From a virus (Duplodnaviria > Caudoviricetes), in IMG/VR virus record IMGVR_UViG_3300031992_000007, positions 128,001 to 192,000 of that record: a stretch of 64,000 nucleotides of DNA. One strand, given 5' to 3'. The notes under the pieces were generated by a model. That model saw nothing but the letters and a program-made list of their open reading frames with translations, had not been told where the DNA came from and searched no databases. The first letter of the stretch is position 1. Each line of letters begins with the position of its first letter. A program made the translations under genes and the position numbers. Shown here piece by piece: positions 12,661 through 16,956 of the stretch.

Positions 12661-12794
12661 GACCACGCACCACGGTTGGTAAATGGTTTTGAGGATGCGT
12701 TATGATTCGTCCATGCTAGCTGGCGGATGAGCAGAGTACTCCTTAACGTATCTCTCTGACTTTTTAGACAGTTCGAATCTGTCATGCGTGGTCA
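12661..12794 (+). ncRNA. Expanded tRNA-like RNA A (134 nt)
   Basis: 9-bp acceptor GACCACGCA/TGCGTGGTC+A; D-loop-like GTTGGTAAA; T-arm GACAG-TTCGAAT-CTGTC; long branched stem replaces the anticodon arm. Confidence 0.75.
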
Positions 12795-12800
12795 CCCTAT

Positions 12801-13070
12801 CGATGTGGACTGGTGGAAGCAGATGAACACTATCCGGCTGCGATGCTGGACGAGGGACAAGAGGCTCATTTAGGCAATGTAGAATTGCCTTTGAGGTGAG
12901 TACTGGTGTAACACTCTCAGGCAGACACTATCTTGAAAGCTGCGAGTTGATCACATACACAGAAGATCGCATCAGCTGTGTGTGGTCGGGATGAACGGTT
13001 CGCAGTGAGTGAGAGACCGTGGCGGTACGGCAACGACGCCCACTATTGGTTCGAGTCCAATGCACATCGT
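12801..13070 (+). ncRNA. Expanded tRNA-like RNA B (270 nt)
   Basis: Acceptor CGATGTG/CACATCG; D-arm-like CTG-GTGGAAG-CAG; T-arm ATTGG-TTCGAGT-CCAAT; about 210-nt multi-hairpin insert. Confidence 0.75.
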
Positions 13071-13084
13071 CCCTTTCAATTTCT

Positions 13085-13370
13085 TGTCGGTCGATCAAAA
13101 AGAAAAGAGACCGCTACGGCGATCCTTCTCCTGCATGTAGTATACTTCATCGGAATAGTAAGCGCCAATGTTTGTCACTGTGCATGTATTTTCGATCGAC
13201 ATTTTGTCTTCTCCAGCTGTCGCAATGCATGGCGATAGATGGAAAGTGGAACAACCGAACCTAATCGGTGTAGCCCCTATCCCAGTAGAGGAAGCTGAGG
13301 CGAAAACAAACCCTGTTCGCAGGTCAGTTGAGATGAGTGGCGCCATCTTGTAAAAACTATGCCGGCCTTT
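13085..13370 (+). ncRNA. Possible further structured RNA
   Basis: GTCGATC/GATCGAC helix, CTGTCGC/GCGATAG hairpin; shares TGGAAAGTGG...CCGAACCTAA..TCGG module with ncRNA 2. Confidence 0.4.
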
Positions 13371-13397
13371 CAACAACAAACAAACCAAAGGTGACAC

Positions 13398-13628
13398 ATG
13401 AGTAAATTGAAGCCGCCTGGTGTAAAACTTAAGATCACTGACTGCTCTAAGATCGATGGTGCGACTCCCATGACATTCATGTGTTCTCCACGCGGACCTG
13501 TGATAGTAAACTCTCCGGAAGAGTTTGACGACCTAACTGGTGAACCGCGTGGAACTACAAGGAAGATGATTCGTGCAACTGGAGCGAGACGTATATCGAT
13601 GATCGGTCGCATAAAGGTACCATCTTGA
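13398..13628 (+). CDS. Small basic hypothetical protein
   Basis: SD AAAGGTG; Arg/Lys-rich C-terminus. Confidence 0.6.
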   Translation: MSKLKPPGVKLKITDCSKIDGATPMTFMCSPRGPVIVNSPEEFDDLTGEPRGTTRKMIRATGARRISMIGRIKVPS

Positions 13629-13644
13629 TTAAGGAGGACTTTAA

Positions 13645-14442
13645 ATGAACCAGAAAGAGTTTGAAGATCACCTTACTCAGTGGATCAGAAGTATCAACTC
13701 GCATGAGGTCAGTGAGATTAAAGCCTTTACTGAGCTCGATAAGCTAATGCACGAGATTCCTCAGTGGGGCGATGAATCCATTGTGCCTGCAGACAGTAAC
13801 CTACTGCATTTGTATCGCAATCGCACTGTATTTTGGTTACATGCAATATCGTTAACACAGGTTGAACACACCTTTGTTCTTACTGGCGCTAAATCGAACG
13901 GTGAGTGCGGATACGTATATGTTGGACTGCCAACAAGTGTAGTTGAAACAGGACTAAAGGCGTACTTTAAGCAACGCCAAGAGAAACTGAAACTTGAACA
14001 AGGAAAACCAATGTCAAAAGTAAAACTCGGATTCAAGAAACTCGATCCTAAAGCACAGCTTCCGAAGTACGCCCACGAGGGTGATGCTGGTATGGACGTG
14101 TTTTCTCTGCACGATGTTGAGCTTCCTCTCAACAAGCCTGTCATTGTCAAGACAGGCATTGCTGCAGAGATACCTGACGGTTACGAACTCCAGGTCCGTC
14201 CTAGGTCAGGGTTCGCCGCCAAAGGCATCACTGTTTGGAATGCTCCTGGCACCATTGATTCTAAGTATCGTGGTGAGATTGGCGTGATACTGTTCTCCAC
14301 TGTTCCTGTTTATCGGGTCAATAGTGGAGATAAGATCGCCCAGCTCGTTCTTGCTCCTGTAACCTTCGCTGAACCTTACGAGGTCCATGAGCTTTCTGAA
14401 ACTGATCGTGGCACTGGTGGATTTGGTTCCACAGGGAGATAA
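13645..14442 (+). CDS. dut: Trimeric dUTPase with ~120-aa N-terminal extension
   Basis: Motifs AGMDV, PRSG, GTIDSKYRGEI, KIAQLV, RGTGGFGSTG. Confidence 0.95.
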   Translation: MNQKEFEDHLTQWIRSINSHEVSEIKAFTELDKLMHEIPQWGDESIVPADSNLLHLYRNRTVFWLHAISLTQVEHTFVLTGAKSNGECGYVYVGLPTSVVETGLKAYFKQRQEKLKLEQGKPMSKVKLGFKKLDPKAQLPKYAHEGDAGMDVFSLHDVELPLNKPVIVKTGIAAEIPDGYELQVRPRSGFAAKGITVWNAPGTIDSKYRGEIGVILFSTVPVYRVNSGDKIAQLVLAPVTFAEPYEVHELSETDRGTGGFGSTGR

Positions 14443-14444
14443 TC

Positions 14445-14681
14445 ATGGCAACAGTAACAGATAGGATCAAGAACCTTCTTGTTGACCAACTGGGGTTGAA
14501 CAAGGAGGAGGTCGAAGATACGTCCAAGTCGTGGTCTGACCTTGGTGCTGATGAACTTGACATCGTTGAGATCATTATGGCTTGCGAAGAGGAATTCAAC
14601 GTTACCATCTCCGAGGAAGAATCGGACAATGCCACGACGGTCAACAAACTCATCGAGACCATCGAGTCCAAGCTGAAGTAA
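14445..14681 (+). CDS. Acyl carrier protein homolog lacking the phosphopantetheine serine (DLGADELD)
   Basis: 78 aa, acidic, ACP pattern DLGAD-x-LDIVEIIMACEEEF; codon GAA at 14553-14555 where Ser is invariant. Confidence 0.9.
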   Translation: MATVTDRIKNLLVDQLGLNKEEVEDTSKSWSDLGADELDIVEIIMACEEEFNVTISEEESDNATTVNKLIETIESKLK

Positions 14682-14684
14682 ATT

Positions 14685-15325
14685 TCCTGGTATACTGGAC
14701 ATCCCAGGCAGCTCCGTAGCCATTTAATTCCCTTGATGGTTATTGGACCTGAAGTCCCCAAAGCGAGCACCGATCTTGTTCGTTAGAGCCGGATCGGTGG
14801 GGATGAGGTGTAGGTGCCCTCCTCGAGTATTGACGGGTAGTAGGTCGAGGCTTAGCCGCCTGACGATCGAATCCGTGGTTGCTGCGACAGTATTTGAGTC
14901 TGATCTTCCTGTCGAGATGCAATACTGAAGGATCAACTTGTTAGTACGTTATGCCTCGCGTCGAACCTATCGCCTCTACCTCGTAGAGGGGTCTAGTAGA
15001 CGGATCTCATTCTTAACCCATGATCTGGCGAGTATGGAAAGAAAGCTGGAGGAAAGTTAAGTCACCATCTCGGAACTATTCGCAGATGGACACCTCGTGA
15101 GATCGACTAACGAAAGTAAAAATTAAGGCAATGAGGTCATCGATTTCAAGGAGCTTGTTTAGAAACGGACAAGGCTTAGGCCGAAATGTAAAGTAGAGAG
15201 TTACCTCGATTAGGTATTGCATTAGTAGTGGCGAGCGAAAGTTGCTAGTTCTCATGATGTCTGAGAGCGACTCGAAATCAGAGTAGGGTGGGTAGCGCGT
15301 GGTTATCTAAACAAGTTCTACTAGA
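14685..15325 (+). ncRNA. Large ornate ncRNA candidate 3 (~640 nt) containing a 23S-rRNA-like motif
   Basis: No ORF; helices 14992-15000/15317-15325 and 15151-15163/15306-15318; many hairpins; AGTAGTGGCGAGCGAA at 15224-15239. Confidence 0.7.
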
Positions 15326-15326
15326 A

Positions 15327-15455
15327 CGCTGTATGACTGAGGTGGACTAAGGTTGGCGGACGGATTCGGAAGGCCGTCTCTGCACAAGACCGTGGATGGT
15401 ATGCACCACGATGCCTGGCTGAAAATGCCCGTGGGTTCGAATCCCACTGCAGCGA
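15327..15455 (+). ncRNA. Expanded class-II (Leu/Ser-type) tRNA-like RNA C (129 nt)
   Basis: Acceptor CGCTGTA/TGCAGCG+A; D-arm ACT-GAGGTGGACTA-AGGT; variable arm GGC-TGAAAAT-GCC; T-arm GTGGG-TTCGAAT-CCCAC; anticodon arm replaced by two hairpins. Confidence 0.8.
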
Positions 15456-15459
15456 TCAT

Positions 15460-15535
15460 TCCAACTTAGCTCAGTTGGTAGAGCGCCGCACTGTTAATGC
15501 GGTGGTCCCAGGTTCGAGTCCTGGAGTTGGAGCCA
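15460..15535 (+). tRNA. trnN: tRNA-Asn(GTT)
   Basis: Canonical 76-nt cloverleaf: TCCAACT/AGTTGGA, anticodon loop CT-GTT-AA, T-loop TTCGAGT, encoded CCA. Confidence 0.97.
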
Positions 15536-16380: not shown

Positions 16381-16956
16381 ATGGCAGATGAGACGAACTG
16401 CTCCAGCTGTGGTGCATTGCTGAGCGACTACAAAGTTGAACACGTGAATTATGATCAGTGTGGTAAATGTGAGTTCCAGTGGTCTAAAATAGCTAAGCCT
16501 ATAGAAGAGTTTAAGTTCGACGAATGTCCTAAGTGTGCAGCGAAGAGTCTGGAGTGTGGTCCGAATGACCAACGGATGTGCAAGACTTGTCGTTGGCTGT
16601 GGACAGTAGGACAGGAAGAGGCAGGCAAGTATGACACTACAGACGGTCAACCTGCTGAACCAGGTGGTGGGAACTGTGGTGGATGTGGTGGTTGCTGCAA
16701 TAAAGATGTAGTTCTAGAGAAGAAGGATCCCACTAAGACTTCATCTTGTCCAGGTGGCTGCTGTGGTAAAGGCGGTTGTTGTGGAGGTGGAGGAGGATGT
16801 TGTTGTGGCGGTGGATGTTGCGGAGGATGCTGTGGTGGTAAAGGTAAACAACAGCCTGTAGCTAAACCAGCATCTGAAGCATCGGCTGGAGGTGGTGGGC
16901 CCTTGTGGTTCGTCATCGATATTGCCAACACACTGACAGTTGCTGTTCCTCTGTAA
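16381..16956 (+). CDS. Cys-rich protein: tandem zinc ribbons plus GGCC metallothionein-like tract
   Basis: Four CxxC pairs in the N-half; GGCCGKGGCCGGGGGCCCGGGCCGGCC; SD AGGAGG. Confidence 0.75.
   Translation: MADETNCSSCGALLSDYKVEHVNYDQCGKCEFQWSKIAKPIEEFKFDECPKCAAKSLECGPNDQRMCKTCRWLWTVGQEEAGKYDTTDGQPAEPGGGNCGGCGGCCNKDVVLEKKDPTKTSSCPGGCCGKGGCCGGGGGCCCGGGCCGGCCGGKGKQQPVAKPASEASAGGGGPLWFVIDIANTLTVAVPL

Follow-up and report, generated by a model that had tools for sequence, protein, structure and literature searches.

A rumen phage encodes an AcpP-type protein with glutamate in place of the phosphopantetheine-bearing serine

Acyl carrier protein (ACP) is among the most connected hub proteins of bacteria, and an excess of its apo form is toxic. 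Solved complexes show ACP engaging its client enzymes through the surface of helix II. ACP can also act as an adaptor, with precedents in AcpP for MukB and in the mitochondrial or E. coli ACP for ISD11-NFS1 and complex I, and the binding of LYR proteins to ACP normally takes place via the acyl-phosphopantetheine arm. In E. coli, the S36T variant of AcpP is unmodifiable and non-functional and does not support growth (PMC3340395). According to a passage in PMC3896788 that cites Keating et al., apo-ACP inhibits glycerol-3-phosphate acyltransferase more than holo-ACP does, with growth arrest as the outcome. SpoT does not interact with apo-ACP (PMC3896788), while the ATPase of MukB is stimulated equally by apo- and holo-AcpP (PMC8602292). 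The apo-ACP data on these three partners indicate that the activity of a cofactor-free ACP depends on the partner, being present with some and absent with others, and the stimulation of MukB by apo-AcpP shows that cofactor-independent binding between ACP and a partner exists.

ACPs are encoded by phages as well, and ACP has been detected in the virions of Erwinia jumbo phages (PMC7760394). We fetched eight ACPs of cultured phages (Ralstonia phages RP13 and phiRSL1, Xanthomonas phage PhiXhv-12, Brevundimonas phage Bajun, Cronobacter phage GAP32, Pseudomonas phage pf16, Vibrio phage P018-4 and Burkholderia phage BCSR5), and the serine of the DSL motif is present in all eight, which makes phosphopantetheinylation by the host possible. 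Like the gene described here, they are mostly accessory genes of large or jumbo phages, sometimes located beside tRNA clusters (pf16); unlike its product, they retain the serine. In three cases the Ser-bearing ACP domain is fused to an extra 80–110 residues, namely in pf16 gp58 (L220:1501-1992), P018-4 (L222:1486-2046) and BCSR5 (L223:1237-1725), and two of these three proteins are annotated as hypothetical only. Our literature search found no work on serine-less phage ACPs and no tests of any phage ACP, the genome papers listing the annotation only.

The window analysed here is a stretch of 64,000 nucleotides (bases 128001–192000) of a 265,480-bp IMG/VR virus record, a rumen phage genome rated as complete by CheckV. 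The features under study are the following, in window coordinates:

13645–14442, + strand: upstream gene, a trimeric-type dUTPase (residues 136–264) with a 123-aa N-terminal extension
14434–14438, + strand: Shine-Dalgarno-like GGGAG, 6 nt 5' of the ATG (reading of the sequence)
14445–14681 including the stop codon, + strand: intact ACP-like ORF of 78 aa with an ATG start (ORF translation, profile matches)
14553–14555, + strand: GAA codon of Glu37, the counterpart of the phosphopantetheine-bearing Ser36 in E. coli AcpP (alignment)
14553–14597, + strand: helix II, residues 37–51, the acidic "recognition helix" (AF2 secondary structure, alignment to E. coli AcpP, columns of the 50-sequence alignment)

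The dUTPase gene ends with a TAA codon at 14440–14442, leaving 2 nt before the ATG of the ACP-like gene, and a consensus scan detected neither a promoter-like nor a terminator-like site in between. This spacing makes co-transcription and translational coupling of the two genes probable. Except for the dUTPase domain, the neighbours match no Pfam or PHROG family, and the same holds for the N-terminal extension of the dUTPase itself (13645–14013, 123 aa). The region contains a single standard tRNA, for Asn (15460–15535), located 780 nt downstream of the ACP-like gene, and no Rfam family bearing on ACP. A further ORF of 191 aa at 16381–16956 encodes several CxxC pairs followed by a long, almost pure Cys/Gly run and has no match in PHROGs.

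To characterize the product, which contains the sequence SDLGADELD, we compared it with profiles and structures of the ACP family. It passes the superfamily threshold of the Pfam PP-binding profile (PF00550, E 5.6e-11, 43 bits against a cut-off of 20.8), matches PHROG 5934 "acyl carrier protein" at 5e-18, and passes the NCBIfam equivalog cut-off for AcpP (TIGR00517, 72.2 bits against 70.45) as well as that of the NCBIfam AcpP model NF002148 (76.8 against 71). The best phmmer match in the PDB is E. coli AcpP (1L0H/1L0I, E 9e-16), aligned over residues 1–73 without a gap and with Glu37 opposite the Ser of D-S-L-D. An AF2 model computed from a 50-sequence alignment (mean pLDDT 86) has helices at residues 4–16, 37–51, 57–62 and 66–77, a four-helix bundle whose long helix II begins at the attachment site, and in Foldseek it matches E. 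coli AcpP chains with a TM-score of 0.87–0.90 and an rmsd of about 1 Å. The original prediction of an otherwise textbook ACP carrying DLGADELD is thus borne out by the profiles, the gapless alignment and the predicted fold.

The phage protein and E. coli AcpP (TIGR00517, PF00550; PDB 1L0H, 1L0I, 6N3P) therefore share their length, the four-helix fold (TM about 0.9), an acidic helix II, the DLGAD-x-LD frame and about 45% identity without gaps. They differ at the residue that defines a holo-AcpP: instead of the Ser of the D-S-L motif, Ser36 in E. coli, the phage protein has Glu37 (GAA) and is thus predicted to be unable to become holo-ACP. The lack of a prosthetic group is a property that it would share with apo-AcpP and with the S36T variant of AcpP, but the apo form exists in cells as a short-lived precursor of holo-ACP, whereas the phage protein would be fixed in the apo state and bears an extra negative charge. 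The claim of the original prediction that the protein is non-acylatable is supported in this respect, since the only known attachment serine is absent from a genuine AcpP-type fold.

The residues around the missing serine are conserved. Asp32, Asp36 and Asp39 are invariant across the 50 aligned homologues, Ser-bearing and Ser-less together, and Leu33, Gly34, Ala35, Leu38, Glu42, Met45, Glu48, Phe51 and Thr65 are nearly so. Within and around helix II, the phage protein keeps Asp36, Asp39, Glu42, Met45, Glu48–50 and Phe51 as in AcpP. Together, these conserved positions make up helix II and the surroundings of the attachment site, indicating that the docking face is retained while the chemistry is removed. 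The structures matched by Foldseek include complexes of ACP with FabZ, FabD, FabH, LpxD, AcpS, BioH, NFS1-ISD11 and MukBEF. In its sequence and predicted fold the protein is an AcpP; lacking the serine on which the defining chemistry of AcpP depends, it is presumably not a carrier.

The glutamate itself is authentic. Seven contigs, which come from at least four samples (ENA, two JGI, Logan), encode the identical protein; three short ones among them were retrieved as DNA and show 100% nucleotide identity to the window over 2.9–4.5 kb. These identical, independent contigs rule out an assembly slip as well as the sequencing slip that had already been considered unlikely, and an alternative genetic code is ruled out as well, since GAA encodes Glu in every code. 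All recovered copies of the gene are identical, with zero sequence variation among them.

We then considered whether the phage carries the enzymes that accompany a carrier protein. The 265-kb genome contains one PP-binding gene and gave no match for phosphopantetheinyl transferase (PPTase; PF01648), ketosynthase (PF00109), PlsC-type acyltransferase (PF01553) or LYR proteins (PF05347); for AMP-binding nothing was above the cut-off, with one sub-threshold match at 11.8 bits. Pfam tubulin gave no match in the genome either. Unlike the setting of AcpP, this genome is devoid of fatty-acid synthase (FAS) and PPTase genes, and the association with FAS, PKS, NRPS or acyl-transfer genes that marks a holo-AcpP is absent, the neighbours being the dUTPase and ORFs without a family. 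Given this gene content, any partner would probably be a host protein.

Close relatives of the protein are scarce. A word search of 5.8 billion clusters found only the phage protein itself, and an exhaustive phmmer search of 1.84 billion representatives returned 13,852 matches at E ≤ 1e-3, of which only itself was below 1e-30; neither search gave a relative above about 52% identity, and megablast of the region against GenBank phages gave nothing. The nearest homologues (L025 and L032, 49–51% identity) have Ser at the site. The most similar dUTPase (87% identity, L002:3995-4429), which does not have the N-terminal extension, is encoded on an 84-kb phage fragment (L002/G001) with two ACP genes. 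The first of these (L002:3227-3469) has Ser in DLAADSLD and directly follows a tRNA cluster; between it and the dUTPase there are two small ORFs, to which the N-terminal extension of our dUTPase shows no match. The second (L022:1477-1725, − strand) has Thr in DLAADTLD and, by analogy with the S36T variant of E. coli AcpP, is probably unmodifiable too. This rumen phage fragment, IMGVR_UViG_3300029305_003320, thus bears a Ser-bearing and a Thr-bearing ACP paralogue. No ACP gene is present on a complete 252-kb contig whose dUTPase is 55% identical, indicating that the gene is dispensable for the clade. The original prediction was said to fall if close relatives all have Ser. The nearest homologues (L025, L032 and the L002 ACP) do have it, but they are too distant to show that the Glu is a one-off.

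A survey of phage ACP homologues for the Ser-to-Glu replacement, which had been proposed together with the original prediction, shows that acidic forms are rare overall but recur. In an unbiased IMG/VR scan with the pattern DL[GA]ADxLD, in which the critical position is free, the 81 best ACP matches had Ser in 78 cases, Glu in 2 and Thr in 1, both Glu forms (L028, L069) being located on 199-kb contigs. Ser is likewise present in nearly all of the 185 domains of the 150 best library matches. The acidic pattern DLGAD[DE][LF]D gave more than 111 matches in IMG/VR, and by profile search about 30 of 80 among the matches listed are small ACP-like ORFs, a proportion rather than a true count, inflated by near-duplicates and with many matches from one marine family. 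Control patterns for Ala and Thr, as degenerate as the acidic one and scanned completely, gave 3 ACP-like ORFs in 50 matches and 2 in 17, respectively. To reach Glu or Asp, any Ser codon must change in at least two bases, while a single change suffices for Ala or Thr, and the excess of acidic forms despite this distance points to selection for negative charge at this position. On these sequence patterns, the acidic replacement was probably selected rather than accidental. Among GTDB species representatives, the acidic pattern gave ACP-like proteins in 3 of 80 among the matches listed, again a proportion and not a true count; all three are domains of longer proteins (171–1725 aa), and none is a small stand-alone protein.

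A separate group of proteins came to light during these searches. P0010, P0027, P0007, P0009 and L322 (Pedobacter) are lipoprotein-like proteins of 300–425 aa with a signal peptide, a lipobox Cys and 2–3 tandem ACP-like domains, several of which are Ser-less (DELD, DEVD, DDLI, DWYD). Judging from these signals, their ACP folds appear to be exported from the cell, which is unexpected.

In a maximum-likelihood tree of 105 distinct phage ACPs, poorly resolved with its 71 columns, the acidic label changes about 5 times, and well-supported branches force at least 2 changes. This suggests that acidic replacements arose several times independently, that is, by convergence. The window protein groups with the Ser-bearing L025 and L032 and not with the other Glu forms. 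The largest acidic group is the marine family, which has Glu, Asp and once Ala at the site, never Ser, and pairwise dN/dS values mostly of 0.1–0.35, indicating that Ser-less forms are maintained as proteins; this purifying selection was measured in another lineage than that of the window protein.

The genomic surroundings of Ser-less ACPs differ by lineage. In the marine family (L171:7776-8619; L127, L160, L181, L162) the gene immediately follows that of a GH108 lysozyme, with genes for DnaJ, a ClpB-like ATPase and peptide deformylase a few kb away. The neighbours are radical-SAM, methyltransferase and glycosyltransferase genes in L122, an AAA_24 ATPase in L169, and uncharacterised genes in the other lineages. 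No gene neighbour is common to the Ser-less ACPs of other phages, and a shared genetic partner was rejected on this ground.

Ser-less ACPs are also found in a cultured phage. The "acyl carrier protein" of Salmonella phage PhiSH19 (Ackermannviridae, AER70228.1) has Asp at the site, in KDLGGDDLD, and is 57% identical to the window protein over a 30-residue helix-II segment. PhiSH19 and the Ser-less ACPs of marine, peat and jumbo contigs (e.g. L109/L028, L069, L156, L169 and L171) resemble the window protein in their ACP fold, in Asp or Glu at the site, in the conserved helix II and in being small stand-alone genes annotated as ACP. They differ from it in their overall sequence (30–40% identity), their neighbours and their place on the tree, so that the replacement in the window protein is apparently independent of theirs. 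The window protein fits this informal class, for which we found no published definition and whose members are stand-alone phage ACP folds that retain helix II and have an acidic residue, Asp or Glu, in place of the serine; the gene is apparently one more, independent case of an unstudied Ser-less ACP variant, not a new kind of protein.

Based on these results, we propose, with a probability of roughly 0.45, that the protein is a permanently unmodifiable AcpP mimic which competes with the host ACP for one or several client proteins, most likely the ACP synthase or an enzyme at the exit of fatty-acid synthesis. Glu at the attachment site would prevent conversion to the holo form and with it acyl carriage, and its extra negative charge would sit where the phosphate of the cofactor (a phosphodiester) would be. 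With the acidic helix-II surface that ACP clients recognise being kept, the protein would act purely by protein-protein binding, as an apo-like or phosphate-mimicking competitor of the host ACP in the infected cell. We infer that it escapes modification at other residues and that it binds host ACP clients, with glycerol-3-phosphate acyltransferase-type exit enzymes or ACP synthase as the likeliest; the PlsB-type acyltransferase is not universal. The outcome would be that host membrane-lipid metabolism is throttled or re-routed.

Two other targets had been put forward in the original prediction. A decoy for the stringent response acting on SpoT is contradicted by the published lack of interaction between SpoT and apo-ACP (PMC3896788), although a phosphate mimic might in principle act differently from apo-ACP at this enzyme. 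For ACP-dependent defence proteins as decoy targets, we found no PADLOC match and no anti-defence family match, and none in the literature that we found.

Instead of competing with the host ACP, the protein could serve as an adaptor or activating subunit that supports a phage or host protein structurally or allosterically, possibly the co-translated dUTPase with its 123-aa N-terminal domain. The tight coupling of the ACP-like gene to the dUTPase fusion gene invites this explanation, and the related phage L002 also has an ACP gene three genes from its dUTPase. However, we found no dUTPase near any other phage ACP in about 170 fetched loci, and the dUTPase of the related phage is without the N-terminal domain. 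A dUTPase link of phage ACPs was rejected on these loci, and because the extension matches neither of the small ORFs in the related phage. For other partners, the activation of MukB by apo-AcpP as well as by holo-AcpP (PMC8602292), the structural matches to ACP within NFS1-ISD11 and MukBEF complexes and the ACP in Erwinia jumbo phage virions (PMC7760394) are in agreement with an adaptor. A partnership of the LYR type is opposed by the genome, which encodes no LYR-type protein. Such binding, moreover, normally goes through the acyl-phosphopantetheine arm. Overall, we consider an adaptor role unlikely.

The gene could also be a decaying or neutral remnant, a host-captured ACP gene that lost its Ser by chance and is heading for loss. 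The Ser of all nearest homologues and the absence of the gene from the complete 252-kb relative would agree with this, and the recovered copies, all identical, offer no variation to show selection. On the other hand, the ORF is intact and has a Shine-Dalgarno site, the product passes the AcpP equivalog cut-off, and every docking residue is kept. Decay would favour one-step changes, as opposed to the two or more substitutions required from Ser to Glu, and the same acidic replacement is found in several phage lineages under purifying selection. A remnant is thus improbable, and competition of an unmodifiable AcpP mimic with the host ACP is the reading that we prefer.

The charge of the protein raises the question of a generic acidic decoy, a nucleic-acid or polyanion mimic directed at a DNA- or RNA-binding host factor of restriction or defence and unrelated to ACP clients. 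The product has a pI of 4.05, with 20 acidic against 7 basic residues and a net charge of about −13 on 78 residues, and its gene lies in a tRNA-bearing accessory region. Yet comparable acidity is common to all ACPs, which makes the charge an inherited rather than a new feature, and the conservation concerns specific helix-II residues and not charge alone; in addition, there is no PADLOC or anti-defence family match, and we hold such a decoy to be quite improbable. The original prediction had placed the gene together with tRNA-like decoy candidates, but the link is one of position only. ACP genes adjoin tRNA clusters in three unrelated large phages (window 12661–15535; L002:1249-3469; L220, Pseudomonas phage pf16), an adjacency that may mark an accessory-gene region only.

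That the protein is still a carrier, modified at another residue or by an unrecognised phage enzyme, is scarcely credible. It does have six other serines (positions 27, 29, 31, 56, 60 and 75), but none of them stands within a D-S-L motif where helix II begins, no PPTase is encoded by the phage, and in E. coli modification is lost with as conservative an exchange as S36T (PMC3340395).

An unmodifiable AcpP mimic, fixed in an apo-like and extra-acidic form, would be a natural probe of which ACP interaction matters in infection. Annotation pipelines will call this gene and its phage counterparts auxiliary genes of lipid metabolism, because the AcpP equivalog cut-off is passed, and for the Ser-less forms this label is almost certainly wrong. 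Serine-less ACP copies in many unrelated phages appear to be unstudied. The class is widespread, mislabelled and experimentally tractable, and since it includes cultured phages (Ackermannviridae), the hypothesis can be tested at the bench. A broader reading, possible but doubtful, is that unrelated phage lineages have convergently made the host ACP into an unmodifiable, phosphate-mimicking effector against a conserved client hub, be it the exit enzymes of lipid synthesis, ACP synthase, an SMC complex or a stringent-response enzyme. If this were true, a new general principle of host takeover or counter-defence would lie behind the label "acyl carrier protein".
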